The notes beneath the pieces were generated by a model. That model saw only the letters and a program-made list of their open reading frames with translations. It ran no database searches and had not been told where the DNA came from. DNA of 58,638 nucleotides, filler included, from Fonticula-like sp. SCN 57-25 (taxonomy: Eukaryota): NCBI GenBank assembly GCA_001724245.1. It is 3 parts of 3 records of this genome, joined end to end, with 100 filler letters (N's around TTAATTAATTAA, not from the genome) between each part and the next. Parts side by side here need not be neighbours in the genome. Positions count along the whole stretch, not along the records: positions 19,425 to 38,660 come from MEDX01000102.1; 2 more parts are not named here. One strand, given 5' to 3'. The translations under genes were made by a program, and so were the position numbers. This document shows positions 8,001-38,660 of the stretch, piece by piece (the first letter of the stretch is position 1; each line of letters opens with the position of its first letter).

Positions 8001-11000
8001 GACAGACTCACCGCGCGGCCGCGGAACAACTACGCTCTGCTGCGAAGGCTGCTGAAGGAGTGGAAGAAGCGCGCCAATGTTTTGCGCCACCTGCACGAGC
8101 CGCGCGAGGAGGAACGCGTATTGCGCGTCGGTGACCGAAAAGGAAATGAGGCCGAGCTTGACCGACACGTTAATCTCGGGCGACAGCGGCGCGAAATAGG
8201 CGGCGCGAGGCGGTGACGCCGACGCGGTTGATGTAAACGATTGGCCGTGCATCCTAATCGGGCCGCTTGCGCTGCGCACACGCGTCGGCGTCGCCTGCAG
8301 TGCTTGTGTCACTCCACCGGCGGCCAGCTGCCTGTCGAGCGCAATGTGGATATCAAAGCGCTCCATGAGCGAGACAGAGGCGCCGCCGAGCTCCGTGTTC
8401 ATCTGGACGCCCTCGAGCGCGAGCGACATTGCGTCCGTAGTCGTGCGCGCGGTCGACTCGACAAAGCGGTTGGCAAATGTGAGGAGGCCGAGGTCGATGA
8501 CGAGGCGGTTCTGGCGCATGCGGTCATCGGGCAAAATAATGCGCGGCGCGTGCAGCTCAACATCAAAGAGCATCTTTGTAGCCTGGATCGACGAGCCAAC
8601 GTCCATGAGGTTGCGCTGCGCAGGCGCGGGACTTGGCGCCAAGTAGGGCGCGACGCTCTGCCCGACGGCCAGGCCTGCGTCGATCAGCGCGACGACGGCG
8701 TCCGAGATGTACACCACCTGGAGGCTGCCGAGGCGCACCTGCAGCTTGCCGTCGTGGCCTGGGTATGACGAGGCACTTCGCTGGTAAGTCGTCATACTCA
8801 CCGTGCACAGTGCTCCGTCCTTGTCAACATCGGACGAGATCATGTCGTCTGACCCTTGTGCAGAGTGTGCCACAAGCTGGATGCTGCCCACGTGCGCCTC
8901 GACCTCGAGGCGGTCGCGGTACTCGGACACGCCCACCGAGCACGAAGCCACAGACAGCGTAGCGATAGTGCCGGCCTCATCGGACGCGCGTGCCGCCCCG
9001 TCCGCATCCTTGGTGTGCGACATTGAGACGGAGATGCCGCCGATCGACGCCTCAAAGCCAAAGTTGACGAGGTCGGCGGCGCGCATCGCCCGAAGGTTCA
9101 TGATGACATTGTCGGTAAAGAGGGTTCGCGGGTGTGCGTCGACCAGTGACGGTAGCGGGTTCTCCAGGAACGTCTCCAGGATCATTGTCATGAGCGGGTT
9201 CAGCGTCAGCGGGTCGACCTGGATGTCGAGCGGCGCAAGGCGAAGGCTCACGCTGTTGAGCGTGCCGCGGTGAATGCTCCGCAGCTCGGGGTTTGACGGC
9301 TTGATGTCCTTGACAAGCAGCAGCATGGCCGAGTTTGGCCCGTGGCGCGCGTTCGCCCGCAGCATGTCGACAAGCGGCACGTCGCGCTGCACCACAATCT
9401 GCGGCCCTGTGCGGCTCTGCTGGTGCTTGCGTCCTGACTGACCCGAGCGCAGCATCGGCGCGCCGCCGGCGGTCACCTGAAGCTGCTGCACGGAGAGCGC
9501 AAAAGCGGTTTCGTAGAAGCGGTCGAGCAGCTGGATGCGCATCGACGACGCCGTGAGCGCCGCACTATCGCCGAGCGCCACCGTGGCGTCGTGGATGTGC
9601 AGGTAAAGCAACACAGTGACGCGGCGCCACCACGCGCGGCTCGACGCTTCTGAAGACGGTGCCGCCGACTGCCCAAACGAGGCGAGCGACGCGTGCGAAG
9701 ACGACCGCGACGGCGTGCGCAGCGAGGATCGCGAGCGGGCCAGGCCTTCGTCGCGCGAATCAGCATCCAGCTCGAGCGCGAGCAGATTGTCAAAGTCGTC
9801 GGTGTCACCGATGACGGCCGCGTACGCATGGTGCGTGATAATGTCGTCCTGCAGCGCCGTCTCCTCCTCGGCGTCGAGGTCGAGAACGTCGTCGGGCACG
9901 AAAAAGCTCGAAAGCGCGCCGTCAATCACGATCATGAGCTGCTTGAACGCGTCGGTCGTGACATTGATACCAAAGCGTAGGATCTCGCCGGTGCAGCAGA
10001 GCTGCGGTAGCTCGAGGGCGTCGGGCGCAAAGCACTGGTCGAGGAAAAGGTTGGCATCCGTCGGGCGCAGGATGTGGTACGGCGTGCCGCGCTCATCGCC
10101 CAGCGCGCTCCGGAGCGCCGGCAGCGCCGGGCCAACGACCACCTGCAGGGCGAGCAGCTTGAGCGACAGCCGGTCGTACACGACGCGCTGCAGCTCCTCA
10201 AGCTCATCGGGCGACAAACGGTGCTTTTGGCGAGCAAGGAGCTCGCGCTTCTTCTCGCGCTCGACAACGTCGCTGCCGATGATCACCTGGCCGAGGTCTA
10301 CCACGAGGAAAGCTGTGTTGCACGGCGACGGGACGACGATGACGGGCGCGCGCAGGTTGACGTGCAGCTCCATTGTTTTGTGCAGCCGCAAGTGGCGCTC
10401 GAGCTGCAGGCGCGTCTGCTCGCGCACCTTTTGGAGCGTCTGGCCGAGCATGCGCTGGAAAAGCGCCAGCGAGGACTCGTCGTCGGGCGGCGTCAAAAAG
10501 GCAATGAGGTGATCAACGGAGCGCTTCGAGTACGTCACTTCGAGCGGCGCCAGCTCCGCCTCGAGCAGCATGTCGGCGTGGCGGCTTGCGGGCGCCGAAT
10601 CAAATGTTAGATGAAAGAGAACCGGGTCGGCCGATTTGGTCACGCCGTCCGCCTTGGGCGCCAAAAAGACGCCATCCGCGCCGGTCAGCGAGAGCGAGCG
10701 CAGCGACGCCTCTACCTGTGATGCTACCGGGCGGTTCTTGACATCAACACGCATGCCCTTGAGGCCGAAAAACAGCACTGGGGTATCGGCCGACAAGAGC
10801 GAAACAGACAGCGTGTTGAGCGCAGCGCCGATTGAGAGCCACGTGTAGTCGTCGGGGAAACGCTGCTCCGCCTCGTCGTCCTCCTTCATGTCAATCACGC
10901 TAAACAGCGCGGAAAGGTCGCTCTCGTCAAGCTCGAGAAGAACGCTGTCGCGACCGGAAACATCCTGCACAGACGCCCCGGCAGCGGCACCGGCGCCCGT

Positions 11001-12517
11001 TGCGGCGGTCTTTTTGCGCCGCAGCTTGGCTAGAAAACCGCTCTGCTTCTTCTTGGGCGCTTCGATCGGCGTTGCTCCAGGTACCGATGCCACCGACGCG
11101 GTGCTGCGAGTCGACCCAGCTGCTGCCGGCGCGGGTTCCTTTTTGAGGCGCTTGAGGCGCTTGCGCTCTGCCTCGGCGAGCAGGCGGTAGAGACGCATGT
11201 CCTCGAAAGAGAGCTGCTTTTCGAGCATCGCGAGCTCGACCTTGGTCGTCGACGCCTTGTCCTTTAGGCGCTTGTTGTAGAGCACGATGTAGCGCTGCCG
11301 CTCATCGCGCCTTGCCTTGAAGAACGACCACGACCAGCGCCGGTTTCTGTCTTGGATGCGCGAGCGCACACAGGTGATGGCGAACCGCCACCACGCGCGC
11401 TTGTCCTTGGAAACGGAGACTGTTGGCCTGTACTGGCGGTAGGGCTCTGCGAGGATGAGACGCTGGAGCGCGCCCGACAGCATAATGAGATCGCAGTATT
11501 GCCGGCGGTCGAGCTCGATCTGCAGCGCCTCCATGATAATGTCGAGCTGCACCTTTGGTACGGCCTTGAGGATCTGCGAGCCCGAGTGGAGCCGCACTTT
11601 GCAGTCGATCGAGGCGGGCTTCACCACGTATTGATGCGTGACCTTGCAGCGGCCGTCCTGGTCGGGGATGCCGGCGAGCATTGCGCGGGCAAACTCGGCC
11701 TCGCCCAGGTGCGCGACAAAGTCGGGGTGGCGGTCAAAGTAGACGGACAATGACTCGACGCCAATGATCTTGTGGATAAAGTCGCCTGGCTTGCGCACAA
11801 AGCCCGGCGTCCAGTCGGCGTTGGTAGACTGCATCGACAGGCGGTGCAGCGTCAAGCCCATCGCAAACGGATGCGAGGGATCCGACGAGCTGTCTTCGTA
11901 GCGAATGTGAACATAGCCAACGTTAAGCTGCAGATTAGCAACGATCTTGGTAATCAGCTTTCGCGCAAAGACGTCGTCGCCAGAGTCGCCGCCAGACTTG
12001 CGATCCTTGGCGTTCTTGCGCTCGTCCTCAAACTCTTCCCAACGACGCTCCTTGTTGCGCTGCCGCCGCTCTTCTTCATATTCAGGATCATAACGCATCT
12101 GCGAACGCGGCACCGCCACGACGTAAAGATGGTCCGCGAGCACATGCACAGGCTCTGTCTTTAAATTCTTCCACGGGATCTTGAGCACAAGAGAGCCAAT
12201 ATACCCTGCGAAATGAATGAGCTAGATGCCGGCCATGACTAAACACGCACCTCGATGCACTTCAATGGGCAAATTGAGCCTTTTAAGCGCCTCTCGCCTC
12301 ACCTTGACATTTCGAAGTGTAACATCGCCTAAATGTCGGTCAGCACGCAAAGTGAGGGTAGCCTGGAGGCGCACCCTTCCAAAGCCCAAGGTCTAGTTGT
12401 TCCTTGTTCACTCCCTCAATAAAATCGCCAAGGTACCTAAAAATAATTGGTCAAACGCGCGCACTCACATACTCGGGCGTACTTGTTAAGAAGCGTGGTA
12501 ACTGCGGCTTCTAACAT
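2088..12517 (-). CDS. VPS13: VPS13-family bridge-like lipid transfer protein (multi-exon, about 3300 aa)
   Basis: Spliced N-terminus MLEAAVTTLLNKYLGDFIEGVNKEQLDLGLWKGDVTLRNVKVRREALKRLNLPIEVHRGYIGSLVLKIPW is a chorein-N domain. VAB/SHR-BD region contains KVITFSPRFVIANRT and WSVPFGV. C-terminal LQVDNQ and LIGNPVGLFSNLASGVEDFFYEPYLG...KGIGTGIAGVVTKPV motifs. Three short 5' introns, one near 5820-5864 and two 3' introns; TGA at 2088-2090. Confidence 0.97.
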
Positions 12518-19424: not shown

Positions 19425-21896
19425 GGGGTTACCGAGCGTCGTAAAGGTGCGCATTCGATGCTAGGAAGGAAGATGGGCTAACCACCTCGGGAAGGTTAAT
19501 GACGAGCATGTCATTACTTTTGACCCCGCGGACGAGCCCGGGCTGTCCCGCCACGGGGCCAAGGCGTCTCGCAAATGCAAGAACATCCAATACGCATTCG
19601 ATCGCGTCTTTGAAGAGTCGTCGACGCAGCTGGAGGTATACGAGCACACAACAAGGCCTCTGCTGGATGCGCTCCTTGACAGGGGGTTCAACTGCTCAGT
19701 TTTTGCATATGGCGTACGTTTTTTATCTTTACGCTCTTTTATCTAAACGCGAGCAGGCTACCGGAGCAGGCAAAACCCACACAATGATGGGTTACGCTGG
19801 CGAGCCCGGCGTGATGGTGCTCACAATGGACGAGCTTTTTAAGCGCATTGAGGCGTACAAGCTGGAGCGAACCATTGAGATCACGGTCAGTATGCTTGAG
19901 GTGTACAACGAGACCATTCGTGACGTCCTCGTCACTCCTGGAACCGCTTCGGCAGCCATCGAGGTCAGGGAAGACGCCAATGGGCAGATCGTGATGAATG
20001 GTCTGTCGGAGCACCGGCCAAAGTCGTCGGAGGACGTGCTTCAGCTGCTTGCAATCGGGAACAGGTGCGGGTCGTTTATTTTGCACTTTTCTCTAACTTT
20101 TGATTTCATAGCAACCGTACAGTGAACCCGACAGAGATGAATGCCGTTTCGTCTCGCTCGCATGCCGTGCTGCAGATCTACATTCGTCAAAAGATGCGCA
20201 ATGCAGGCGTTCGAGGGGAAGTGCAGTTTTCAAAGCTGAGCATGATTGATCTTGCCGGTTCTGAGCGTGCCTCCGCCACCAAGAACACGGGCGAGCGCCT
20301 TGTCGAAGGTGCCAACATCAACAAGTCTCTGCTCGCGCTCGGCAACTGCATCAATGCCCTTGGAGACAGGACAAAGGCCGCCGGTCACATTCCTTATCGC
20401 AACTCCAAGCTCACCCGCCTTCTCAAAGGTACGGCGCCGTATTTGTTTAGCATCGTGTTTATAACGCATTCCTCTAGATTCTCTCGGCGGCAACTGCAAA
20501 ACGGTTATGATTGCCAACTTGTCCCCATCTGCTATTTATTTCGAGGACACGCACAATTCGCTCAAGTATGCGAACCGCGCCAAGGAGATCAAGATGACAG
20601 TGCGCACTTTCCGGCTTGCTATGCGTTAAACTGACCTTGTCTTAATCAGGTTGAGAGGAATGTTGTGAGCGTGGAGTACCACGTTTCGCAGTACACAAAT
20701 ATTATCAAGGAGCTGCAGGCGCAGGTGCAGGAGCTGCGCGCTCAACTTACGAACGGCGGGGCGAGCGGCTCTCACGCGGCGCCGTCGAGCGGCTCCTCGC
20801 GCAATATTGCCATGTACCTTGCTGAGCTGGAGCGCTGCGTGTCGTATGTAACGATCAAAGGTCAGGGCTTTGCTAATGATGTGCCCCAGACAAAAAACCG
20901 TGCTGCGGAGCGGGCTTGCTACCTTGAACATGCATGTCAAGTACCAGAATTGGCTGGCGAGCATTGGATGCGGGGCGGCTGCTAGTGCTGGTACGCTCGC
21001 GACACAATGATAGAGGCAGGGATACTAACATCAAGTAGTTGATCATGACTATGCGTCAAATGCCAATGCCGAGATTGCTTCGCTGGACTCGAAATTGCAG
21101 CACATTGCCAAGGAAGGTACGAGGCATGGCTCTTTGGCAATACTGTTTTCTGACACACTGAATGCTAGCCGGCAGCGACCTTCCTGCCCATGAGAATGAT
21201 CGTCTCCACGAGCACGGCCGGAGGCTGACGGCGGAGCACGAGGTCCAGATCCGGTCTCACGAGCTCCAGCTTGCATACAGCCTGTTGGACAAGCAGGCGG
21301 TGATCTGCGCCTATTTGGCTACACAGACGCACTCCCTGCAGCAGTGTTTTACCAATGGCGTTCAGCCCACGTCCGCTGGTCTGCTCCCCCTCTCTGCCTT
21401 TGTTGCCCAGCAGCAGGACCTGCAGCAGCAAGACATCCACCAGCTGGCCGCCAGTCTCGCCGCCGCTTCGCAGATCCAGCCGGCGGCTACCGAGGCTGCA
21501 GAAAACCTAGATGTTAGCATGGAGATGACCCCACAGCGCGGGCCCAGCTCGCCTCTGCTGGACTCGCCGCCGGCAACTGTGAAGCGCACCGCCCCTACCC
21601 GAGCGTACAACCTTCGCAGTGGCGCGACGCACACACGGTCCGCCTTAACCCCCAAGAATACCAATAGTCAAAAGTACTTTCAGCAGTCGCCCAGTCTCAA
21701 GCGTCTTTCGTCTACAACCCAAAGTCGCCGCCAGTCTCTGATTCCGGTTCGCAAGAAGGAGGCTGTTCTCGCCGCTTCCCAGCAGAGCAGGTCGCGCCGC
21801 GTGTCAAATGCGCCGCAGCCCGTGAGCCGTATGTTGAGCGAGTCCTCTCGTAGGTCATCAATGATTCCGCAGCGTGTTCCTGTGAACCTCCGCTAG
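19425..21896 (+). CDS. kinesin-8 family motor (KIF18/KIF19/Kip3-like), 5' truncated
   Basis: [112 protein letters not shown] and [10 protein letters not shown], followed by a coiled coil and a basic tail. Confidence 0.93.
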
Positions 21897-22176
21897 TCGA
21901 CCATGTTTGTTTCTTGTATCGTTTATGTGAATATACCAATTATTTATCTGTAGTCCCTGTGCGACTTGCCTTGCATTCTTTATTGGACCTTGAACTTGGC
22001 GCGCTGTTCCTGCATTTATAATTACTCATGCGAATGCATCAAAGTACTCGCAAGTGAATAGAATGGATGGAGGATGAAAGTCTCCAAAAAGCTGACGACA
22101 TCCTGCGATTCTTTGAATATAAAGTTTGGGGTGGAATCCGGCATTCCTTGTGTGGTGGTGGCAATCGGCATTCAAG

Positions 22177-23952
<1,776 letters not shown>

Positions 23953-24099
23953 TTTCTCTCAATTTAAGAGGGGATACTATTCTGGCTGTACTTTTTTGAA
24001 TAGATGATGATTCGTTGTGTATTATTGAGTGAGTATGGCCCCTACACAGTAAAGCTGCGAGGAGTCGATTGCGCAAAGACCACCGGCACCGGGCGCTTG

Positions 24100-25858
24100 G
24101 TATCGGCCAAGTCTGCGTACAGAGAGCTGTTAGAATGGGCAAGTCGCAAACAGAAAGCAGCGCACAATTTACTCGCTGGTGTTTCGTCATTTGGGTTGCC
24201 TTGAAAGAAAGAACGCTCGACGGAACATTGGAGCGAGCAGCTGTGCGGTCAAGCGAGTCCAAAGCAACGACGCGAACACCAGCGCTAAGACAGATACAGT
24301 AAGAATCGATACAATACACACACGTTGGCATACCGCTTGCGCTCCTTTTCCAGCTTGCGCCGTTGCAAGCGCTTCAAGTTCCTGGCCTTGCGCGCTTCGG
24401 TGATTTCACGCGCAACACGGTCGCTCTCCGATTCCTGGTGACGCTTGGCAGCGTGGGCAGTCTGCAGCTGTTCCAATACATCCGACGGCAGGAGCGCAGC
24501 CGAGCGGCGCTGCTTGTCCTCCTTTTGGGAAATGTTGCGCTCTTCCATACGGCGGCGCTTTTCCTTTGCAGCAACCTTGAGCCTGAAAGCAAAAAGTAAG
24601 TAAAAGCTGGCCAATTCGCATGTACGTACGCGTCCGTGGCCTGGCGATAGCCGCTTTCCGCAACGGTTGCGGCCGCACGCGCCTGCACCTGGGACACGGC
24701 CTCGGGAGCATCGTCGTCAGAGTCGCTGTCCGCGCCCGACACAGCCGACAGCGTGGGGGCAGGGGAAGCAACAAGAGGCTTAGGAGAGGGCGCCGCTTGA
24801 AGAGGCGTCGACTTGCTGATCGGAGTAGACGACTTTGCTGGAGTGGACTTGACGGCCGACTGGGGGGCTGCTTTCTTTGATGACGACTCGGCCTTGGGAG
24901 TAGGCGCCTGCTTGGGGGTGGATACATCCTTGGGCGTTGCGCTTTGCTTCAAGGTGGGAACATCGGCCGGGGTGGACGGCTTCTTGCTGGGCGTCGCCTG
25001 CTTCGGGGTCGCCTGCTTCGGGGTCGCCTGCTTCGGGGTCGACTTGGCAAGCGAGGGAGAAGCGTGCTTAGGTGACGGCGCAACGAGATCCGCAGACTCG
25101 CTTGCTTCGTCAATGTTGCGTTTCCGGGAAGCAGATACTGGCGTCTTCTGGATTAACTCGTCGATCGGGCCCGAAAGATCGGCCGCGCTCTTGACCGCCG
25201 ATGCGTTCTTGCCAACGCGGCGCTTTTGCGAGGGCGTCGCCAAATGATCATCGGCCTCTGGCTCTGACTCTTCCGCAACAGCATCCAATACAGGGTTCAG
25301 CTCAGCCGCCGGCTTGCGGGCTCGCCCAATCCTCTTGACAGTGCCGGGTGTAGAGGTCAAAGAGCCATCGGCCGCGCGCCGGCGAGAGGAGCGGGTCGAC
25401 AAAGGATCGTCGGAATCAGATTCATTAACAGAAGAGCGCCGGGTCGAACGCGTCGCCGACTGCAGCGTCTCAGTGTCAGACTCAAAGCCGGTTAGCGTAA
25501 GAGGAGCTTCGACGGATGCCTTGGCGCGAGATCTCGTCACCCTTGACGAGGTCGAGGCGTCCGAATCAGACTCGTACGCCTGCGAGCTGGGCGGGGCTGT
25601 GGTTGCAGCGCGGCGCCGGGTCTGCCGCCCGCTAGGGGTCTGCGGCTCAGCATTGGCCTCGTGAGAAGCGCCTGCAGCGTCGTCCTGCGGTTCAACACTG
25701 GACGACCGTGTTTTGCGGGTAACTCGGCCGGGAGTACGAGTTTCTGTTGGCAGCGCAGCATCTGCCTTCTGGGATAGCCCCGCAAGACTAGTATATGGCA
25801 AAGAGTCCTCCGCATCGCTGCTGGCAGCCGATGACGCCAGCCTAGTTGACCTCCGCAT
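24100..25858 (-). CDS. NOL7/Bud21(Utp16)-like U3 snoRNP-associated protein with a long basic S/T-P-rich N-terminus
   Basis: SDSDDDAPEAVSQVQARAAA...KEKRRRMEERNISQK...LLPSDVLEQL resembles the Bud21/NOL7 signature. 3' exons and stop are uncertain (about 24020-24200). Confidence 0.6.
24985..25045 (-). repeat. 15-nt coding tandem repeat (TPKQA x3)
   Basis: CTTCGGGGTCGCCTG units encoding STPKQATPKQATPKQATP. Confidence 0.9.
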
Positions 25859-25978
25859 GGCAACGATCACCGTCTCCCACCTCGTGGCAAAGGGCAAACT
25901 ATGCAATACAACAACTAGTTTGCATCGATTCTGATTTTGAACTGATTCCATCTGATTCTTGGTTGTGCGGCGGGCGGC

Positions 25979-28900
25979 ATGCGCGCGCTCAGCGAGGCAG
26001 TGTCGCGCCTTGTCGAGCAAGACGCCAACGCACAGCACAAAGTATGTATCGTTTCACTTTTGCTTGTTCCATCTCTTTTCCGACGATTATTGATTAACGA
26101 ACTCGTTGTTTAGATCTTGACTGCGGAGGAATCGGCCGTTCTTACGCATCTGTCGTCGGTGCCGGAAACGTTTGCATCCTTCCTCAGCTTGCAGCATTTT
26201 GAGAACGAGTACGTTCATTTGCACACTTTTATGCATACATCGTTTCCACTGTTATTTCTCACTGCTGTTTTAGTGGCGTTTTGACGGTCGGCACGGTGCT
26301 GGCCAGCCGCCTTTTGATGCTGGTTCAGGAGCAATGCCTTGACAAGGTCTACCCAAGAGTCGTGGCTCCGCAGACCCCTGCCAGTGCGAGCGCCTCTAGT
26401 ACGAATAGCCCGAAAGCAGAGGAAGAGGAGGCTGGAGTGGAATCGCTGGCAGATGCCCTTTCTTTAATCTCGCAGCCTCTCACCGTTGCTTGGCTCGAAC
26501 AATACCTGTCATCCTTGAAAGGTACGCGAGGAATGCGACAGAGGTTGTGCTCACGCATGCGGCTCACTAGCTTTGTTCAACGAAAACACCCTGGAGGATA
26601 TGATATACACGATGGAAAGCGACGACCTCGATTGGCAGTCGCACCAGCGGGAGATGCGTGCCAATGCGGCAGGGGCTGCCCAGGATAGCAAGGCCGGCCG
26701 AGCCCCGCAACTGGCACGCCACACCGACGGCAAGGCGCAGCACTCTTTTAGTGCTCCAGCCACTGTTTCAAACGGACGCAGCCATATGAACTTGGTGCCG
26801 CCATCCGTCGGGCTTTGGCCCGAACTAGAGTCTGGCCAGTCTGTCTTGAGGCACCTCTGGTCTGCGGTGGACGCGGCAGTTCTCCGGGGCGAGTCAGTTT
26901 CTACGCACGAAGTGAAAGCGGTATGTTGCCGTTTTGTGTCTTTATTGCAACTCACGAGTCCCATTAGCTGCTTACTTCCCTCAAAACGACGGTGAAATCA
27001 AAGTGGGACGACCCCACACGCGTCAACCAAGGCGAGCTCTACGACCGTCTTGAATTTGTATGCTTTCATGCGATGTCATTTCTTTTGCTGACCCGTCTAT
27101 TTTAGGTTCTCAACAGTATTGTCAACTACAAGCGGTACTCGGAGCCATTTCTGAAGCCCGTTTCAAAGACGCGCTATCCTGACTATGTAAAGTATATCAC
27201 GCAGCCCATGGATATTAGCACGATGCAGGCCAAGGTACCGATACTGATATTCTTTGTTTTGGTGTCTAATGATTGATCTAGCTGCTGGCGCACGAGTACA
27301 AGAGCAAGGCGGATTTTGCGGCCGATCTTGACCTAATTTTTAACAACTGCCGACTTTACAACGGCAGCGATCCCACTCTTGACATTGTTCGGTATGTTTG
27401 CAGATATTGCTCCTTATGTTTTGCTGATCCATTTCTTTTCAGTGCCATGGAGGCGACGCAAAGAAAGGCCGAAATGCTGATGAAGCAGGTGCCCGATTTG
27501 CAAATTATCGAGAGGCCGGCGTCTGCCGTTCCACAAGAACCGAAGGGTGCGGGCAGCTTGGCGCAGTAAATGTCTCTAACACGCGTTCAGATGTGGACCA
27601 CGCCGACGCCATGCGCGAGTTGCACGAGTTTGAGGCCGGCATGGCGATGGTCCCCGGCTCGTTCTCGAGCACCGAGGGCGCTGCTGCTGATCCGGAAACC
27701 ACCGTGTCTGTTGAGCCGAGTGTGCCGGAAGGCACCGTGGCAGCCGATTCGTCCACCGAAGTTGTACAGGAAGATTTGGCGCCGCCGCCGTCGTTTCATC
27801 TTTCAAACGCGGGCGACCGCGACTTGTGCGTGCAAAACACTTTTTATCGCTCAGAAACGCGCGCTTTACGCCACGAGTATTATGTACGATTTTCTTTAAG
27901 TATTCTATGCCGGTTTTAACTTTGTTCAGTCTGCGCGGATTCAGCAGAGCATTCTCCCCTTTGGTGACCGAACGGCGCTGGTGAGATCGCCCGACCAGAT
28001 GGGCCAATACTACGACTGGGCCACGACGAGCCTGCGAATCCAGCGCCGCACGCCCGACAGGGACATGCTCGCATCGCTTGCCGTCTTTGATGGGCCAGTG
28101 AGCGTACCAAAGACCTGTACGCTGCTCACTATATGCATTGTCGCAATTTTTTACTCATCGGAATAGCAGCAAACCAACCTCGGTACTTTCCCGAGCTGTA
28201 CCCTCGCTCGCAGCTGCCGTACCTTCAAACGTCTCAGCCGTCCCACTCGTACGAATTCATTATTTTCTATATAGCGAGGCTCACTGAATGCGGCGCAGCT
28301 CGGAGCGGTTGATTGATGAATCGTCACTTAAACTGGACTCGAACAATATTGTGCTGAACACCGTCAGGACTATTCAACACGTGCGAGCTCTGCGGCCAGC
28401 GGTCCTCGAGCGGGAGGGCGTTGTTCGCACGGGGGTCCCAGCGGCACCCGAGAGCACACCTGCGCCCTCTGCGCCTCTGCATGCTGGCGAGCCGACCGTC
28501 GTTCGCGGTGCTCTGGATCGATCGGTTTCACGCCATGTTCTTTCGCAATCTGTTGCCGCGCTTGCTGCACACGCTGGCTATGATGGTGCGTTTTTGTCTC
28601 TGATGGTCGCGAGCCGGCAGCTAATGTGACATGCTAGTGATTGGGTCGTTCCCGTTGAACATGCTGGTGGATTTGGCGGAGGAGTTCTTTTCCAAAGCGG
28701 GCCGTGCTTTGCAGCTTTACAATGATACTTACGGCAAAACGATGAGCGGAATTGTACGCAGCACGAGAGGTATTTTTAGCGTATTAAACATGTGGTATAG
28801 GAAATGCTGGAGCACACTCTGAATGATCTTCAAGTAAGCACGCCCGATTTAAGCGACTACTTTTCGGAGGTACGACCGCGGCAGAAGGCGAGCGCAACAT

Positions 28901-29645
28901 TTACTAATTTGTGTCACCAGGGACTTGCAAGTTATCGCTTACGTCTGCTAAAGATCGAGCACGAGTTGAATTCGCGCCTCGACGCGACCGAAGCGGTACT
29001 TTTTTTCGTGCCATTGATTGCTCTGTTCCTCTGACGCGGTATTATAGGTCAACGAGCCGACCGACGAGGACGTTGCGTTTGTTTCGTACGCAACCGCAGC
29101 ATGACTAGCCTGTTGCTAAACTTTTTGTTTTCCCTTACAGCGGCAATTTTGGATGCCATACCGAGTTGAACTACCTCGGGCTTCGCGAGTCGCCTGCCGA
29201 CAACAAGCGCGTTCTTCCCGATGAGCTTTTGCTGCCAGAGTATTCTGCCAGCTATCGCTACCGCCAAAAGCGCGCTCGCCATGAAGAGTACGCAGTTTTC
29301 TACTGGGCTCCACTGGTAGCTCATACTTTGGTTTGCAGGGATAACTCTGTGTGGTGTGCCGCCATGGACACTCAGCTTGCGGTCAAGGATATGCACGCGC
29401 TCCCCGGTCTTGAACCGGCGCCTCCTATCGAGGTCGGCAATGTCATTGGGTTGATGCAGCCTTTGCTGACGTCAGCGGCGAGAGCGACATCGGGGACCAT
29501 CACGGAGGACGACGAATTGACACCCGTGCAAAAGCTCGAACGCAAGCGCGAGCGCGATACAGAAGCTGAGCTTAGAAAGGCGTCGCTGGCGACAAGGGCT
29601 ACATTGCTTGTACGGCCGCCCGCTCCGCCAGAAGCCGCCGCATGA
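25979..29645 (+). CDS. SPT7: SAGA subunit Spt7 (bromodomain + histone fold), many short introns
   Basis: SKWDDPTRVNQGELYDRLE..VLNSIVNYKRYSEPFLKPVSKTRYPDY...PMDISTMQAK..YKSKADFAADLDLIFNNCRLYN matches the fungal Spt7 bromodomain. Histone fold LSQSVAALAAHAGYD...LVDLAEEFFSKAGRAL, then GNFG...NYLGLRE. Confidence 0.88.
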
Positions 29646-29770
29646 TTTCTCGTGTAAAGTAAAGTATTGTCTACTATTGTGTACTAATCGCAACCTGCCA
29701 AATAAATAACATGTATTGCTAAAAGGTGTATTGTGTGCATTGCGAGTAAAAGTAACATGTCGAGCATTCT

Positions 29771-32700
29771 TCAAGGTTGCCTGGGTACTACCAGATTGTC
29801 ACTATCCATCTCTACATCACCGTCATCTTGATATGCGGTTGGACCCGTGTTCTGCGCGCTACTGGGATCCTGCTCGTTCACCGGTGGCGTATAGGGAGGC
29901 GGCGCGTCATAACCGCTAGTTGATGCGTCGCCTTGCTCGTTCTCAAAAGGGACCGTGTCAGGGTTGCCCTTCACATCGTGAGCATACAAATTCGCCGCAT
30001 AGGCACCCTGCTGCTGCTGCTGCTGCTGATGCGTATGTGTGGCATGCTGCTGCTGCTGCTGCTGATACATATGATCAGCAGATTGCTGTTGCATACCAGC
30101 AGGTACTTGTCCAGGAGCAGCATTGTATGGGTACGCCTGAAAAACTCCATCGGCACTCGATCCTTGCGCAAGAGCAGCATAGGGCACTTGCTGTTGATGA
30201 GCACCAGCAGCGCTCTGTCCTTGTCCACGAGGAGCATTCAGCACGTTTTGCTGTTGCACACCAGCCGGTCCTTGTCCATGAGCAGCATTCGGTACGCTAT
30301 GCTGATGGACACCAGAAGTACTCGGTCCTTGCCCAGGAGCAGCAGTGGACACGTGCTGCTGAACACGAGCATGGCTCTGTCCTTGTACAAAAGCTCCATT
30401 GTGCCCATAGTGTTGCACGCCAGCATGGCCCTGCCCTTGCACAGGGGCAGCATTTGGCACGTGTGGCTGATGCATACCAACAGCGCTCGGTCCTTGCGGC
30501 GGGGGGGCATTGTGTGGATACTGCTGGTTCACACCAGCCGGTCCTTGTCCAGGAGCAGCAATATGTGAGTACTGCTGATGATGCATACCTGCCCGTCCTT
30601 GTGTAGGATCAGCATTGTACGGGTGCTTTTGATCAAAACCAACATGTCCCGGTCCTTGGCCAGCAGCCACATTCTGCACATGCGGCTGTTGCACGCCGGC
30701 CGGTCCTTGTCCAGAAGCAGCATTCGGCACGACCTGCTGTTGCACAGGAACATCGCGCACTTGCGAACGCACGTCACTCGACAAGGCATGCGTCGCATGC
30801 GCTGCCGGTTCCCTCGCTGGAACTTGCCCCCTTTCACCAACTGCCTCGTTGCCTCGGGGCTCTCCCTTGTATCTGAGGTACATCACAACCGGGATGTGAT
30901 CTGACGGGTGATGGGGGCTAGGGATGACTTTAACAGGCTGGTTGTTATTGAGGTAGTCAATTCCGTAGTTGAGTGGCACCGGCGAATAGTCATCCTTGGC
31001 AACAAAGGCAAATGCATCCTTGGAGAAGAAAAAGTGATCCACAGCGCGAGAAATCTCATGCGTGCGGAAAGTCGGAAAGTTATAGGTACACGCGGCAAAC
31101 TCGCCCTGGTAATCTTTAAGGAAGTCAACAACGGGAGAGTCTACATCGTCATTAAAGTCGCCGCAAATAATCAGCGGGAGCCCGGGGTACAGTTGATGAA
31201 TCTTTTCAAGCGGTGGTTAGAATACCGAAACATGAACAGAGAAAGCGTACAGTGGAAAGCGCCTGGTGCATATCCTTTTTGCGCTCCTGCAGCATTGTAG
31301 GATCTCCAACCAAATGAACAGCGAGAAGACCTGTTTCAAACTTCATCTTTTTGCTGCGAAGAATCATAAACATGCTCTCCTTGTTATCTTGGAAACTGGA
31401 AGGAATCATCATGTGATCCCTGTTGTCAGTCGGCACAACACTAAATTATCTCACGGTAAGAAGGCGTATCTACCACAGCAGATAATAAACGCACCTCCAG
31501 TCGCGCTTCTTGGTCAATACTGCAATAGTGGAGGTTCCCATCGACAACATCACCGTCAGCTGGTACTCGGCAAGTTCGCCCTTATCAGAAGTAGCCATGC
31601 GAAGTAGGTTGAAAAAGTTTGGCTGCACCTCCTACTCACGCTATTAGAGGCGGCAACGATCTAAACCGGCACGCACCTGCAAGGCAATAATGGAGGAATC
31701 AAGACAGGCAAGTTGCTTGATAAGAAGATTATGGCGAAACTGTGCTTTGCCAAAAGTGGCATCGGCAGCATATGGCGCAAACTGCATTGTGACGAATGAT
31801 TGGCCGAGCACATTGTAGCTGGCCACCGAGAAAATATCTATCATCGAGGTTAGAATGACGTAAACGCAGTGACGTAATCGCACCATCGGCCAGAAGCATG
31901 CGGCTGCGCACGCTCCAGAAATGCGGATTCCCTTGAGGGGCAGCCGGCCTGGGCTGCGCGTGATTGGCGTGAGGGGTAGCCTGGCCGGCGGGCGCGCCCG
32001 AATACGCTGGGGACCCATATGCTTGAATAATGTCAACAAAAACCGTGTCAAACATGATATCGCACCTTGCGTGGACGGGTGGTGCGGGGCAGTCGTGTTC
32101 CCAGACGTTGCACTCGCGCGAGGTTGCTCTTGCCTGACGGGCGCGCTTGAGTGCGATTGGGTTCCGGGTGCTTGAAGAATGTTAACACAAAAGCCGTTTC
32201 AAATGGAGTATCGTACCTGTCGTTGGCGGGCGCTGTGTAGTGGTGGGCTGTTGGGCTGCCGACACGTGGCGATCTACGCTGTTGCTACCGCCGGCTGTCT
32301 GCGGGTGGGGCGAAGAGGAGCGGCCATTCTGGAAATTATTTGATCCACCGTATCCTCCTCCAATGGACGAGCTAACAAGTGGCGATCCTCTTGGTGCTGG
32401 GTCTGCAGACAAAAGTTGGACTGCAGAGGTATGAGAGGCGCGCAAAACGCAGAATAGGGCTGCGTACACTGCGGGTACTTCTTGTTGTTCACATCAATGG
32501 CGCGCCGAACATGATCCAAAAGAGCATGGCCTTGTGGAGGCGAAATGAGAATAAAGTTGGAAAGCGATGCAGAATATTCCATGTACTGGTAGATTTGGTT
32601 GATGACATGCACGCAGTAGTCCTCTTTGCTGACAGTGTTGTTCGCCACTCCCATGAATGGAATGGCGAGCGACTTGACTTCAGACTGGTCTGCAAGCATA

Positions 32701-33123
32701 AGCATTGTTTTCAAGGTGTCTCGAAACTTCTCAACGTCCTTTGTGGTCCAACGTTGTCCGGCAGAAGTGGGGATCGGTGGAAGCGTGACGAAAAGAAAGT
32801 TCTTGTATTGATCAGCAGTTGCCTGATCGTTCTTCACAAAGTCGTCCTTTACATATTCCATATGAGCTAAAACAGCACTCACGTTAAAGAGCAGAACATC
32901 ATAACCTCAATGCGTACGGTACACCTTACGCAGAGCGCTCACCAAACCACCGCCCAGGGGTCGCTTATCAAACCTTGGCACTGCTACCGCGTCGGCCTCG
33001 AGAGACTCGATCCCCGCGGTTGTCCCTTTAGCAAAGTCAGTCTCCGCAAAGCCGCGCAGGTGACAGGCCCGTACATGTCACTTTGAACCTGCCGTCCACG
33101 CTCGCAAAGACCGTGTCCCCCAT
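29771..33123 (-). CDS. Macro-domain + EEP (CCR4/nocturnin/Angel-like) phosphoesterase + Q/H/G-rich repeat fusion protein
   Basis: Spliced reading MGDTVFAS...GIESLEADAVAVP...LGGGLVSAL...LMLADQSEVKSLAIPFMG (Macro-like), a linker joined by frame-compatible phase-1 introns, then FSVASYNVL, IIALQE, AVHL, LIICGDFND, VDHFFFS and HPSDHIPV (the complete EEP motif set), then repeats. Confidence 0.82.
30005..30760 (-). repeat. degenerate 57-66 nt coding tandem repeats (NAAPGQGPAGVQQQH-like, about 11 units) and polyQ
   Basis: Recurrent ...GTCCTTGTCCAGGAGCAGCA... units on the + strand; CTG runs at 30008-30065. Confidence 0.9.
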
Positions 33124-33408
33124 GGTGGCAGCGAGCAGCTGCAAAGTCTGACGGGCAGACGGCAGGCAGACAACTCCTTATGCTTACCACAGCGTACGCA
33201 ACTTTAGTTTGCAGTTTGCAACTACTGTGATAAATCGACCATTTCTTTCGGCGCTGCCCTTGTCGAACAACACAGCAGCGGTTCAAACCTGGTTCAAGCT
33301 ACGCCCGCAGGAGGCAGGAGTGTTGTAGTAGCTGGCAGGCCAGAGCGCCAGTGAGCGTACTGGTACAATACACGGAGGGGGCGTCCCTTTCTGAGCCATC
33401 TACGAAAG

Positions 33409-36400
33409 ATGCTGCTTCGTCGGGTCGCGCTAGGGTCGGCCCTGGTGGTGGCCTTGTCGCTATGGTTTCCATTGGTCTTGGCGGTATTGCTGGCCATCTT
33501 GGCAGTGGTCGCGCTTGTTGCGGGCGGTATGATAGCCGCCGTGGTAAGAGCGAGGGAAAAGGCGGGGCTTCCCTTTGTGCGCGTTATCCGGCCGTTGTCA
33601 CTCGTACGAGAGTGGTCGACGGTCGAGTCGGCAAGGCGGTTGGAGGCCATGGAGCATCCTAAGCGGGCCGTTGTGGAAACGATGTCGATCGGTGCTCAGT
33701 AAGCCCCTTTTCACTTTTAGTAGAGTAAGCGTTCTAACGTTTATTTGTGTCGTAGGATCGAAGAGGCGTTTTCACTTGTTATTCGCGATTACATCAAGTC
33801 GTGGTACATGACGTCGATCTCAACAGAGGAAATTGTGGTGCACACCTTGGAGTCCCATCTGCGCGACTCGCTGGTTGAGATCAAGGATCGCGCAGTGAAT
33901 GTTGACCTTGTTTCGGTCATGGTTAAGAAGTTGGGTGCGTTGGGCCAATACTCTTTCGCTTGCGTACTCATGGCGTGGCGTGCTTGCAGTCCCTGTCTAC
34001 ACGTATCACATGGCGCAGCACCGGATCGCATACTCTGAAGTGCGGAAGCAGTTTATGAAGAAAGCCAATGCAAAGGTGGACCTGACAGAGTCCGAGGAGC
34101 TGGACCGCCTGCTGGCATCGCACTACCGCAAGGGCCAGGTACGTTCCGCACGTCTCGATGACGCCCGGCTAACGACGACACGCAGCTGCACCGCGCTCTC
34201 TCCAAGAACGGCGACGTCGAGAGCGAGTTTGCGTATTTGCGCATGGTGGTGGACCTATTTTTGCCGCTTATCTTGCATCCTTCCACGCTAAAGAGCGATG
34301 GTCACCGCCTTGTCGTGCGAGAGATCGTGGCCTGCAAAATTGTACGCCCGCAGCCCTCTCGCAGCGAACGCGTTTGCTGACCGCTATATTTTTAGCTTCA
34401 CCCAATTCTCGAGATGATCTCGGACCCCGATTATATCAACCAGAACATCGAGTATTTTGTGCGTATCCGCCTTGATTTCCCAGGACGCGACTAACATTTG
34501 GTATGTGCGGTAGGCGGGCAAGCAACTGGACGAGCAGTGCGTCTTTTTCCTCGTTTTGTGTTTGTATGTCATACTAATTATCATTAATTAGGCGCGTCGT
34601 CCGAACCTTCCGCGAGACGCTGGATAAAATGTTTAGCACCGGCATGTCGCTGCAAGCAGAGCCGCGCTCCGATCGCTCCGAAACAAAGCTCGAGTCCCGT
34701 GCCGACGCCAAGGAAAAGTCAGCAGCGTCAAAGGACGCATCCTCGGCACCCCGCACGTTCGACGACTTTCTTCGACTTATCAACGAGTGTAACACTGTCG
34801 TGGATGCCAAGCGCATCCGCCACCAAATTCTGGCCGAGTATAGCAAGAAGGAAGGGCAAATTCGTACGGCTTTCCAGTTCTTTGCTACGGTCGACTAATG
34901 CATATGTTGATAGGCGGAAAGAAAGACAACGAGCTTGTTAGTGGAACGCGCGTGGGCGAGTTCAAGCGGTACCTTAACCGCCTCGCGCTTGCCAGGAAAA
35001 AGTGCGAGCGCAAGATCAAGGAGCTCGGCGGGTCATATCACGCGGTGCGCAGTGGCTGTGGCGTATGCGGCGTTGCTTACTTTTGATCAATATAGGACGC
35101 GCATTCTATGAACCTCAAGACGGTCGCCGACGAGCACATGAAGCGCACGGGTGAAATGACCTTAAGAAAGGTTCTCCGGTCGCACTCTGCACTCTTTTAC
35201 TTTATGGAGTTTGTTGAGCGCACGGGTGAAATGAACGTCCTTCAATTCATGCTGACGGTCGACAGGTACGCCTTCCTTTTCCTAGTTTCTTTAGTTCGTT
35301 TTGTGGTTGCTGAACAGGGTGCGCAGCTTCCGTACCACGGTCTCGAACGAGACGGCGCAGATGCGCGACGACATGAGGGCGGTCATTGGCCAGTACCTGC
35401 TGCCGTCTTCTCCGGAGCGCGTCGACATCTCGGTACGCGCTTCTCTGTTAAACTTTGTCATGCTCATCTCCTTTACGTACAGCCTGAAACCCTGGAGGCA
35501 GTTGTTGCGTTCCACTCTAACCAAAACGAGGACTTTGCAGGGTACGCGTGCTTACCTCGTATATAGCTCTGCGCTAACACCCGCTCAGCCTATTTCGTGC
35601 TTATGACGAGGTGTATGCGCGCATGGAGAGGGGCCTTTTCTCCTCTTTCCTCAGCTCCGATCTCTTTTACCGCTACGCCTCGGACCCGGCTGCCCAGGCC
35701 GAGCTTGCGTTCGAGAACGAGGCATCGGAGCCCGTGGCCATCCCGCAGGCGTCACAGTCGCAAGTTCTTGCGTCGTCCATGTCCGAGTCTATTCTCGGCA
35801 CGTCGTACTCGGCCTCGCACGACTTTGAGACCAGCCCGATCCGATCCCCAGAATCGAGCGCCTCCCATTTTGCGTCGAGCATCGACCAGCAGGAGGGCCA
35901 CGCGCTGCGGCACACGTACTCTGACCACGCGCTGTCGACAAAGAGTGTAAAGTCGGACGACGACGAGGAGGACGAAGAGGACGAGGGCATTGCGCCGACG
36001 CGGCGGCTCCAGGCCGAGTCGCTAGAGAATAGCGCGACCGTCGCTGCCGTTGAGTCTGCCTTGCAAAACATTCTGCAGTCGAGGGACTCGCCCGCGTTGG
36101 ACGATGGCTTGACGGAAGGTCGCGAGCGCAGAGCAAGCATGTTTGCGTACGACCATGTCGAGCAGGAGACGGACGAGGTGCGCTATTTGTGTCTGTTTGA
36201 GTTGTATTTTAACATGGGTTTTCGTAGCCGGCGGCCGAGATTGATCGATCCCCCGGCGACCTCCTCTCCACCAATGATCTGCTGTCCGACATTAAGGAGA
36301 GCATCGACAGCATCATGCAAAAAGAGGCCATCGTTGACGCGCTCATGATGCGCGAGAAGAAGAGCAGGCGCGCCGACAAGGAGGAACAGCTGCGCGTGCT

Positions 36401-37786
36401 GCGCCTTTCAAAGGCCCAGCTGCAGCAGGAGCTGCGCGAGTTGTTGTTTAAGCGAAGCAAGTTTGAGACGCAGCAGGATAAGGACGTGATCGTCCCGGGG
36501 GCGTGGAATGTATATATTTCGTCCTCGACGACTGGGTTTGACGAGAGCAATAACGCGTTTGCGCTGTACCTTATTGAGGTGCATCGCGCGGATCCCGACA
36601 ACCCGTCCGGTTGGGTCGTGGCGCACAGGTTCGTTTTCTTGTATGGTTTTGGCCGGCAAGGTACTGACCTCGAGTAGATACCGGGAGTTTAGCGACTTGC
36701 ACGCCAAGCTCAAGGCGCGTTACCCTGCTTCCATCGGATCCCTGGAGCTTCCTCGAAAGCAGGCGTTCAACAAGCTCTTTAAAATGCGCACGGATTTCGT
36801 CGAGGAGCGTCGGTTAGGGCTGCAGACGTACCTGCAGACGCTCATGAGCAACGCCGAGTGTTGCCGCAGCCCCGAGCTGCGCGATTTCCTGTGCCAGCGT
36901 CCCACTCCGCAGACCAACTTTCAGCGCGAGTTTGGCGACATTACACAGGCGAGCTCTCACAGCTCTGATAGGCACGCGCGCCATATATTATATTTGGCTC
37001 TCTAACCACAAATTCTTTAGTTTCTTCCCGAAATCGTTCAAGAAAATGTCTGCTGCCGTGGACACGCTCGTCAAGCCGTTCTCTGGAGTTTTGGATGATG
37101 TGTTTTCTGGTCACGACAAGACAAAGGACTCGAGCGAAGTGGCAGCTGTGCCCACGTACGTGCCACCGCCAATCCCGCAGGCTGCATCATCGACGTCAGA
37201 CCCCTACGACCTCGATGAGCGCGACGAGATGTACGGCGCGCAGGGGCTCAAGGTCGACGGCTTTACCTCGATTGCCGAGCCGCTTATGAACCTTATTTTG
37301 GAATTATTCGAGATGAAGGAGCGCAGCAGCTACTTGAGGCGCCAAGCAGTACTTTTGATCCTTCAGCAGATTTTGGGTGGAACCATCGAGAGGTATGGGG
37401 CAATCTTAGGCGTGGCGCGTGTTCTCACCGAGGTTGGGCATTTTAGGAAAGTGACGGAGAATATTCTGTGGCTTGTCAAGGAAGATATGGTCGCGTGGTA
37501 TGTTTCGCGGTTCATTTCCACGTGGTGGCCCGGCGGCGAGCTTGTGATGTCATGGCCGCCCCGCTCAATGGAGCAGCGCGAGCAGACTAAGAAGCAGGCG
37601 AAATCCAAGCTGCTGGCCGCATTGCCTGATGCATTTATGAGTATGATTGGCCACGAAAACACGCGGCGCGGTGGCGTGCGCCTTTTTGATGCGTTCCAGT
37701 CACCCCTTTTGAACAAGCACCTCATGTACACGCTATTCGACGAAATTATCCTTTCGATATTCCCTGAGCTGCAAGACCAGCTATAG
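33409..37786 (+). CDS. MDM1: Mdm1/SNX13-14-19-25 family sorting nexin (TM-PXA-RGS-PX-Nexin_C)
   Basis: N-terminal TM hairpin; PXA (LVIRDYIKSWY, VREIVACKI..PILEMISDPDYINQ); RGS (LRKVLRSHSALFYFMEFVE); PX (WVVAHRYREFSDLHAKLK, FVEERRLGLQTYLQ); Nexin_C (WWPGG, FDAFQSPLLNKHLMYTLFDEIILSIFPEL). Confidence 0.92.
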
Positions 37787-37959
37787 TCTTGCGTGCTGCC
37801 TTTCTGCGTTGTAGTTCCATACCTGTACTTTACCCGTATACCATATATCTCCATGGCACCCGTACCCCAAACTTTGTGTTGTCCAGTGATCGATCAAGGA
37901 TTGCAACGGGCATTCTTTATTAAATAATTCAGAGTAGATCGATATGTGTCGACGGCAGC

Positions 37960-38660
37960 TTAGAGCTTGCTCGAAATGGTGGCCGGCTCGCAGATCGCCT
38001 GCATGTCGTGAAGGGCACCACGAATGGCCTTGGTCATGTCGGCCGACTTGGCCCACGAGCGCAGGTTGGCGACGTTGTAGTTGAGGTAGTTCTTGTTGAT
38101 CATGTACGCGATGCCAAAGCCATCCGGAACAACCTAAAAGGCGCTGCTGTCAGCACCGAGCTATAAATTGGCTAGAGTAGCGCACCTCGCCCCAGCCGTA
38201 ACCCTCAAAGTACTCGCTGCTCAGCTGCGAGGTGGAGAGGTTCCAGCGCGAGCTGCGCGCAAAGAGGGGGTCCTTGAAGAAAGCGTGGTTCTCACCCGCG
38301 TTCTGGAGAAGACGCAGACCTGCAACCGTCGTTGAGCAAAACTCTTTGCGCCACTGCCAGCGTCGTACCCATCAGGTGGCGGTCGCAGCCGTTGGCGTTG
38401 ACGGCCTCGGTCATGTACTTGACGTGGGCGTCGCAGGCCTCGCGGAGGAGCTTGAGGCGCTGCGCGGGCTATGGAAAATCAGGTGAGCCTTAGAAGATTA
38501 GGTCAAAGCGGCATACCGTCGCGGCGGGGTCCTGCATGGACTTGACCCACGCGACCGACTCGTTCGAGACCGTACGCACGACCTCGGTACGACCGGCGGC
38601 GTACTTGCGGGTCTGCGCCGACTCGTAGGTGGAGCGGCACACACCAAAGACGCGGTAGTA
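37960..38660 (-). CDS. CAT2: carnitine O-acetyltransferase C-terminal part (5' truncated) with PTS1
   Basis: STYESAQTRKYAAGRTEVVRTVS, GCDRHLMGLRL and LSTSQLSSEYFEGYGWGEVVPDGFGIAYMI; ends ...ISSKL* (peroxisomal PTS1). Confidence 0.92.

Follow-up and report, generated by a model that had tools for sequence, protein, structure and literature searches.

The window analyzed here is a stretch of 58,638 nucleotides (nt), filler included, from the eukaryote Fonticula-like sp. SCN 57-25 (assembly GCA_001724245.1), and it joins three parts from three records of that genome. In the part taken from MEDX01000102.1 (positions 19,425 to 38,660), the minus strand at positions 29771 to 33123 carries a gene of 10 exons and 9 introns. 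Joined by coordinates, the exons give a spliced coding sequence (CDS) whose 2,922 nt are divisible by 3 and whose only stop codon is the last one (TGA, 29773 to 29771). The predicted protein of 973 residues consists of a macro-like domain, a linker, an endonuclease/exonuclease/phosphatase (EEP) domain, and a repeat tail. An earlier note on this DNA had claimed that the fragmented open reading frames (ORFs) at this locus are joined in frame by canonical short introns. The nine GT..AG introns and the lone stop bear this out, the boundaries given in that note coincide exactly with the start and stop of the CDS, and all of the motifs quoted there are present, including LADQSEVKSLAIPFMG in exon 3 and those named with their domains below.

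Exon 1 (33075 to 33123; residues 1 to 17) begins with an ATG in the context gccaccATGG, and an in-frame stop lies 18 codons upstream of this ATG at 33123. The initial strand of the macro-like domain is probably contributed by exon 1. Exon 2 (32918 to 33025; residues 17 to 53) carries the N-terminal macro motifs, GIESLEADAVAVP and GGGLVSAL, and exon 3 (32468 to 32866; residues 53 to 186) encodes the C-terminal two-thirds of the domain, including FLFVTLPP. Three exons encode the linker (exon 4, 32217 to 32420; exon 5, 32066 to 32170; exon 6, 31884 to 32021), and the next three encode most of the EEP domain (exon 7, 31677 to 31837; exon 8, 31495 to 31631; exon 9, 31251 to 31440). The end of the EEP domain and the entire tail are encoded by exon 10 (29771 to 31201).

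The nine introns are, in order, 49, 51, 47, 46, 44, 46, 45, 54, and 49 nt long. Donors of the form GT[AG]CG were found in all nine, and every acceptor is AG. If intron 1 (33026 to 33074; 49 nt, GTACGG..AAAG) is left unspliced, the frame stops after 28 codons. Intron 2 (32867 to 32917; 51 nt, GTACGC..TTAG) separates the two exons with recognizable macro motifs. Intron 7 (31632 to 31676; 45 nt) interrupts a catalytic EEP motif between LQ and E, intron 8 (31441 to 31494; 54 nt) follows, and intron 9 (31202 to 31250; 49 nt) shifts the frame, and therefore the EEP domain is complete only once spliced. A strict intron signature (GTRCG donor, YTRAY branch site, YAG acceptor) was counted across the whole window, with 100 block shuffles as the control. 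It occurred 46 times (31 on the plus strand and 15 on the minus strand), versus 11.7 ± 4.1 times in the shuffles (maximum, 27), and the introns so defined cluster at 44 to 55 nt with a peak at 47 nt. Only three of the nine introns of this gene match the strict signature.

The EEP domain (30866 to 31837; residues ∼337 to 609, ∼273 residues) runs from exon 7 into the first part of exon 10 and spans introns 7 to 9. Its motifs are SYN, ALQE (split by intron 7), AVHL, ICGDFN, AVDH, and PSDH, and the predicted domain is complete with every catalytic motif. Exon 10 alone matched Pfam family PF03372 with an E value of 3.6e-8 (33.9 bits, against a cutoff of 24.5), and PF03372 accounted for 28 of 30 matches of the EEP domain by ESM features. 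In a search of the PDB with exon 10, the match to PDE12 (E 4.5e-5) aligned the GDFN and PSDH blocks. Twelve matches had E ≤ 1, and 10 of them were PDE12, ANGEL2, CNOT6L, nocturnin, or CCR4, with only PDE12 being significant. The splice junctions between exons 7 and 8, 8 and 9, and 9 and 10 restore an EEP domain that can be aligned from end to end with intronless EEPs. Spliced residues 339 to 605 and an intronless 278-residue metagenome EEP shared 23% identity over 280 columns, with the paired blocks SYN/SYN, IIALQEV/IVCLQEV, AVHL/NVHL, IICGDFNDD/IICGDFNDD, and PSDHIP/PSDHLP. Likewise, the spliced EEP covered positions 3 to 245 of a 249-position profile of stand-alone EEPs (33.1 bits), and all 11 PDB matches of that profile were CCR4 (2e-13), PDE12, nocturnin, CNOT6, CNOT6L, or ANGEL2. 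The domain thus probably belongs to the CCR4/PDE12/nocturnin/ANGEL clade rather than with the APE1, DNase I, sphingomyelinase, 5-phosphatase, or TDP2 EEPs, as judged by these alignments. No leucine-rich repeat (LRR) family was matched by any exon translation in Pfam, and therefore the protein is not CCR4 proper.

Residues 1 to 186 form a strongly divergent macro-like domain. PF01661 (Macro) was the sole Pfam family listed (E 0.09; 13.1 to 13.2 bits), and NF001666 ("ADP-ribose-binding protein") was the sole NCBIfam match, at E 0.0014 for exon 3 and E 2.7e-4 with exon 2. In the latter case, the in-frame intron between the two exons was translated along with them, its stop being written as X, and the score rose from 18.6 to 20.9 bits. 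The macro part matched neither PF20016 in Pfam nor any entry in PHROGs or PADLOC. In phmmer searches of the PDB, macro chains made up eight of the nine matches of exon 3 and seven of the eight matches when exon 2 was included; the best was macroH2A1.1 (E 0.014). Exon 2 (TAGIESLEADAVAVPRFDKRPLGGGLVSALRK) aligned with macroH2A1.1 residues 25 to 56, colinear with the C-terminal KSLAIPFMG block. By ESM features, exon 3 was nearest to ThsA_Macro clusters (0.93, with 176 of 256 features shared and 16 of 30 matches in that set), a PF01661 cluster scored 0.89, and the 10 best Pfam-bearing matches all shared family or clan.

The binding-site motifs were compared with those of macroH2A1.1. EADAVAVP..GGGLVSAL pairs with DSDAVVHP..IGGEVGSTL of macroH2A1.1, again colinear with the C-terminal block, and the adenine-contact Asp and the Gly-rich phosphate loop 1 (GGG) are both present in the right order and spacing; we take the corresponding positions in macroH2A1.1 to be ligand contacts. 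Phosphate loop 2, which usually has G-x-G, reads KSLAIPFMGVANN, versus KSIAFPSIGSGRN in macroH2A1.1, with only one Gly retained. Because loop 2 keeps no more than one glycine, binding of ADP-ribose by residues 1 to 186 is plausible but unproven, and the ADP-ribose sensing proposed in the earlier note is conjectural. MacroD hydrolases have an N-A-A-N motif with the catalytic Asn. In the alignment register with macroH2A1.1, V-P-R-F occupies these positions and the catalytic Asn is absent. ADP-ribosyl hydrolysis, which the earlier note had entertained alongside binding, is unlikely because the MacroD-type Asn is not there. By sequence, the macro part is nearest to the type of macroH2A1.1 and PARP14 macro domain 2 (MD2). 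With respect to class, the sequence points to this reader type; by structure, the scores are level with those of the MacroD type. From its motifs, the macro part more probably binds a ligand than hydrolyzes one.

Structural models also pointed to a macro-like fold. An AlphaFold (AF2) single-sequence model of exon 3 alone (predicted local distance difference test [pLDDT] score of 67; predicted template modeling [pTM] score of 0.62) gave four Foldseek matches in the PDB at E ≤ 1e-3, led by macroH2A1.1 (E 4.4e-4; probability of 1.00; TM score of 0.44 to 0.58 over ∼92 of 132 residues). The Foldseek matches listed were macro-domain chains down to rank 44, with one further row for a T. gondii mitoribosomal protein. 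Foldseek is not fully independent of the sequence matches, because amino acid identity enters its score alongside shape. VIA-align, which does not depend on Foldseek, compared the same model with 48,161 chains and put macro domains in seven of the top eight places (Z of 7.4 to 8.3), with MACROD1 at 8.3, MACROD2 at 8.0, PARP14 MD2 at 7.7, and GDAP2 and PARP9 MD2 at 7.6 each, values that are not decisive alone because unrelated alpha/beta folds follow at 7.3. A second model, of exon 2, the intron, and exon 3 read through, was poor (pLDDT of 51.6). Its Foldseek matches reached only E ∼0.1, and its top four VIA-align places among the 48,161 chains were all macro domains (Z of 5.1 to 5.9). Together with the sequence matches, the models make it quite likely that the N-terminal domain has a macro fold.

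The linker (31884 to 32420, exons 4 to 6 with introns 4 and 5; residues 187 to 334, ∼150 residues) is rich in S, A, P, G, and Q (15% S, 14% A, 14% P, and 10% G) and is probably disordered. The tail (residues 613 to 973, ∼360 residues) contains 17% Q, 14% A, 12% G, 11% P, 9% V, 7% H, 6% S, and 5% N, and no Pfam family matched the tail alone. Tandem repeats at 30053 to 30745 form ∼12 units of 17 to 19 residues (..QQ.HVPNAAPGQGPAGV..) with a Tandem Repeats Finder (TRF) period of 51 to 57 nt. The "..QG.." units, counted by eye on the printed sequence, numbered 12, close to the 11 or so reported earlier. A poly-Q/H stretch (30008 to 30092) consists of CAG/CAT runs with TRF periods of 3 and 36. The term "prion-like," used in the earlier note, is not supported by the composition, which is not N rich, and a prion-like or condensate-forming tail is a conjecture. 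The acidic C-terminal end carries a PPPY motif of the PPxY type, read from the sequence at 29891 to 29902. PPxY motifs bind WW domains or NEDD4-type ligases, and PPPY could be a docking site for either. On the plus strand, two long ORFs (228 and 214 residues; 29920 to 30606) lie antisense to the repeat tail. They result from the absence of stop codons in several frames of the repeats and are most likely not genes.

Relatives were sought for each half. An exhaustive phmmer search of 1.84 billion protein representatives with the macro part (E ≤ 0.001) returned no relative beyond the gene's own ORF (P0001) and a match to a repeat protein (P0002). The latter, a highly repetitive protein of 886 residues that matched the macro exon at E 1.2e-7 with 25% identity and five repeat stretches, was set aside, its score being judged repeat inflated. 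A word-indexed search among longer proteins with the macro exon gave none from 90 candidates, and in a metagenome scan with the same exon 81 pattern stretches matched, none of them a relative. With the EEP, a search of proteins of similar length returned only the window's own ORF (P0004), and the metagenome scan returned three distant loci, L001, L002, and L003 (the last with 52% identity over 28 residues); all of L001 and positions 1500 to 5500 of L002 were inspected. L001 (622 to 1458, plus strand) lies between two ORFs on an AT-rich 2.3-kb contig and encodes a stand-alone CCR4-like EEP of 249 residues, counted from a conserved Met; four proteins (P0006 and P0009 to P0011) are 74 to 100% identical to it. 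These stand-alone metagenome EEPs of 249 to 278 residues (the L001 ORF, P0006, and P0009 to P0011) are the nearest detectable EEP relatives and share the identical block IICGDFNDD. They differ from the protein described here in having a single domain, with neither introns nor macro domain, linker, or tail, and in their AT-rich contig.

The fused architecture was sought in the same databases and in the literature. PF01661 was present in none of the 120 best of 1,624 profile matches among longer proteins, all 120 being single-domain EEPs of 234 to 356 residues, a weak test for fused forms because the bacterial PF19580 family swamped the matches. Full-text literature searches found no paper on a fusion of Macro with EEP, CCR4, or PDE12, and term look-ups in the main text of two surveys of ADP-ribose systems (PMC4245714 and PMC9503650) returned no mention of EEP or CCR4. 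The Macro and EEP families are both well known. Their combination was not found described, in agreement with the earlier note, which knew of no such protein; the literature and relative searches are weak tests of an architecture.

Comparison with known systems places the protein among several families. CCR4, CNOT6, and CNOT6L have the same EEP motif set (SYN, LQE, HL, GDFN, D, and SDH) and the same order of an N-terminal targeting module followed by the EEP. The CCR4 LRR tethers the enzyme to CAF1/NOT; here, by contrast, a macro-like domain replaces the LRR and the EEP is compact (∼273 residues). Among solved structures, the C-terminal EEP half is best matched by PDE12 (E 4.5e-5, as given above), although the similarity is ∼25 to 30% over ∼100 residues, and the protein described here lacks equivalents of the N-terminal domain and mitochondrial targeting of PDE12. 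Nocturnin and ANGEL2 are members of that EEP clade as well, and their direct matches were marginal (E 0.11 to 0.42). The substrate of nocturnin is the 2'-phosphate of NADP(H) and that of ANGEL2 is a 2',3'-cyclic phosphate, and nothing in the sequence selects between substrates.

On the macro side, residues 17 to 186 were matched best, both by sequence and by Foldseek, by macroH2A1.1, PARP14 MD2, and PARP9 MD2. These reader-type macro domains have the DAV..GG and S(L/I)A(I/F)P blocks in colinear order; they differ in that identity is 11 to 24% over ∼90 residues, below family thresholds, in the diverged loop 2, and in their other protein context. PARP9 MD2 is described as a nonhydrolytic reader in a preprint (bioRxiv 10.64898/2026.08.12.744356). 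The Thoeris protein ThsA resembles the protein described here in that it pairs a macro domain with an effector module and in the nearness of ThsA_Macro by ESM features, whereas ThsA of this type (TM-macro) is bacterial with a transmembrane effector. ThsA macro domains are reported to bind an ADP-ribose-type ligand (PMC11204291).

On balance, the locus is probably one nuclear gene with very short introns that encodes a 973-residue modular enzyme, namely, a macro domain, a linker, an EEP domain, and a Q/A/G/P/H repeat tail with a PPxY end, in which the macro domain addresses the EEP. In the CCR4-like clade, the EEP is generic and an N-terminal accessory module, such as the LRR of CCR4, sets the address. 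We infer ADP-ribose binding, the substrate, and the coupling of the domains; the gene structure, the EEP family with its motifs, and the likely macro-like fold come from the sequence and the models themselves. The macro-like domain would fill the targeting role held by the LRR in CCR4 and would dock on an ADP-ribose-bearing ligand. This ligand may be mono- or poly-ADP-ribosylated, whether protein or nucleic acid, or may be a free nucleotide derived from ADP-ribose. Docking would localize or gate the Mg2+-dependent EEP phosphodiesterase. The EEP, in turn, would cleave a phosphoester at an RNA 3' end [poly(A), a 2',3'-cyclic phosphate, or 2'-5' links] or in an adenine nucleotide, and the tail and PPxY motif may add multivalent protein contacts. 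Both domain assignments of the earlier note fit this reading: the divergent macro-like domain, which is below the Pfam threshold, is backed by NCBIfam, PDB sequence matches, ESM features, and fold searches, and the complete EEP set of CCR4/nocturnin/ANGEL/PDE12 type is backed by the end-to-end alignment and a PF03372 score above the cutoff.

ADP-ribose signals are read and erased mainly by macro domains, whereas enzymes of the CCR4, PDE12, nocturnin, and ANGEL kinds act on RNA 3' ends or on the phosphates of adenine nucleotides, which they trim. If nature has fused the two, the gene would show directly, at the genetic level, that ADP-ribose signaling can be wired to an RNA-end or nucleotide phosphodiesterase, and it would offer a single polypeptide for studying that coupling. 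The weight of the case is limited because the gene is a one-genome orphan whose macro part is without a detectable relative among 1.84 billion proteins.

Several observations weigh against this reading. The macro match is under the Pfam gathering score (13.2 versus 22 bits), and the NF001666 score of 20.9 bits falls short of the equivalog cutoff of 246. The VIA-align Z scores are modest, and values below 8 can mean a common arrangement only; moreover, the fold models cover either exon 3 alone or a read-through that includes 18 intron-encoded residues. Loop 2 (PFMGVANN) has only one Gly of the usual G-x-G, and the domain may therefore have lost the ability to bind ADP-ribose. When exons 7 to 9, the N-terminal half of the EEP, were read through their introns, they gave no Pfam or PDB match alone. 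Four of the nine introns of the gene have an AAG acceptor, and two of the nine have off-consensus branch sites. Because the search of 1.84 billion proteins gave no relative, there is no support from conservation or covariation and no second species with the fusion. Lastly, a search for public sequencing runs listed no RNA run; the one run with part of the stretch (X1), containing 0.24 of its words, yielded nine short contigs that are colinear with the genome, introns included, and have no joints; since these contigs, of 151 nt, are colinear with the introns, the run behaves as DNA and is silent on expression.

One alternative accepts the fusion gene as real but holds that its macro domain is degenerate, no longer binds ADP-ribose, and serves as a protein- or nucleic acid-binding or structural module. 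The protein would then amount to a CCR4/nocturnin-like phosphoesterase, specific to its lineage, with added end regions. Macro domains of the macroH2A2 and GDAP2 types are not known to bind ADP-ribose, and macroH2A2 (6fy5, E 1e-3) is among the Foldseek matches. The subthreshold macro similarity and the partly conserved loop 2 fit such a module, and the absence of relatives suggests fast evolution. However, what we assume to be the ligand-contact positions of macroH2A1.1 are matched in the alignment by the EADAV Asp and by the GGG loop, and the nearest ESM clusters are those of ThsA macro domains, which are reported to bind ADP-ribose (PMC11204291). We regard loss of binding as unlikely, though it is the strongest of the competing explanations.

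Two further alternatives are decidedly improbable. The first makes the macro domain a catalyst, i.e., a MacroD/Poa1-like ADP-ribose-1''-phosphate phosphatase or an enzyme that removes mono-ADP-ribose (de-MARylase), acting in series with the EEP on by-products of tRNA splicing or NAD. MACROD1 and MACROD2 are the top VIA-align matches (Z of 8.3 and 8.0), the NCBIfam match is a PRK00431-type family, and ANGEL2 and nocturnin act on 2',3'-cyclic phosphate and NADP(H) 2'-phosphate, respectively. Against these points, V-P-R-F stands where MacroD enzymes carry N-A-A-N, the best sequence matches (macroH2A1.1, PARP14 MD2, and PARP9 MD2) are of the reader type, and the VIA-align Z scores of the macro classes are tied within 1. 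The second, drawn by analogy with ThsA and held at similarly low confidence, is a sensor in which an ADP-ribose-derived signal (ADP-ribose, an IAD-like dinucleotide, or poly-ADP-ribose from infection or stress) would oligomerize or unlock the protein, the EEP, thus switched on, would destroy RNA 3' ends or 2'-5'-linked nucleotide messengers, and the Q-rich repeats would drive assembly. If true, eukaryotes would have in this protein an effector of innate immunity or the stress response, a nuclease or phosphodiesterase gated by ADP-ribose, of a type not yet described.

The reading of the protein as a macro-addressed EEP enzyme also depends on a single transcript for the macro and EEP halves, which we infer from the organization of the DNA. 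Retention of intron 3 (32421 to 32467; 47 nt) leaves the frame open to a stop at 32276 to 32274 and gives a macro-only product; P0001, in the protein database, is a prokaryote-style gene call of such an intron 3 read-through ORF. There is also an internal Met (..SRMLLAD) shortly before the EEP domain. In contrast, exons 4 to 6 (447 nt) are open in the spliced frame only, which needs three phase-compatible introns, and shuffled linkers were stop-free in 2.7% of 20,000 trials. Within the linker, intron 4 with exon 5 and intron 5 with the start of exon 6 are a tandem duplication (31915 to 32216, minus strand) with a mean column identity of 78% over 158 columns. The duplicated unit thus comprises an exon and its intron, and the donor, branch site, acceptor, and frame are intact in each copy. 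The gene is closely bounded, by a divergent sorting-nexin gene ∼230 nt upstream and by a convergent plus-strand ORF that ends at 29645, ∼125 nt downstream. Given these linker and duplication data, and with no space for a promoter and terminator between the halves among the tightly packed genes of the window, separate macro and EEP transcripts, or a normally retained intron 3 with a macro-only protein ending at 32274, are the least probable of the explanations considered.

The neighboring genes of the window encode VPS13, a PXA/Nexin_C sorting nexin, a B-box protein, SGF29, PGAP1, and TBCC and are eukaryotic nuclear genes. In the VPS13 region, a match to the strict intron signature at 5863 joins two large ORFs (2393 to 5845 and 5724 to 12221). 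The sorting-nexin gene (33355 to 37786, plus strand) encodes a hydrophobic N terminus followed by PXA (E 2e-11) and Nexin_C (E 7e-25) domains and is of the SNX13/Mdm1 type. It and the Macro-EEP gene would share a short bidirectional promoter region. Just upstream of the Macro-EEP start codon, a GTACGC donor at 33197 (minus strand) with acceptors at 33148 or 33139 probably marks an intron in the 5' untranslated region. A stop lies 3 codons before this donor, and therefore there is no extra coding exon.

Sequence variants were seen in the X1 contigs. Relative to the window at 31379 to 31810, they carry three changes in intron 8, five in exon 8 (four of them at adjacent bases), and two in exon 7; by reading, two of the variants are synonymous and three change a residue. 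Since other X1 contigs are identical to the window, these differences, together with a 7-nt insertion that the X1 contigs carry in the 5' leader (33174 to 33178), probably come from another allele or strain.

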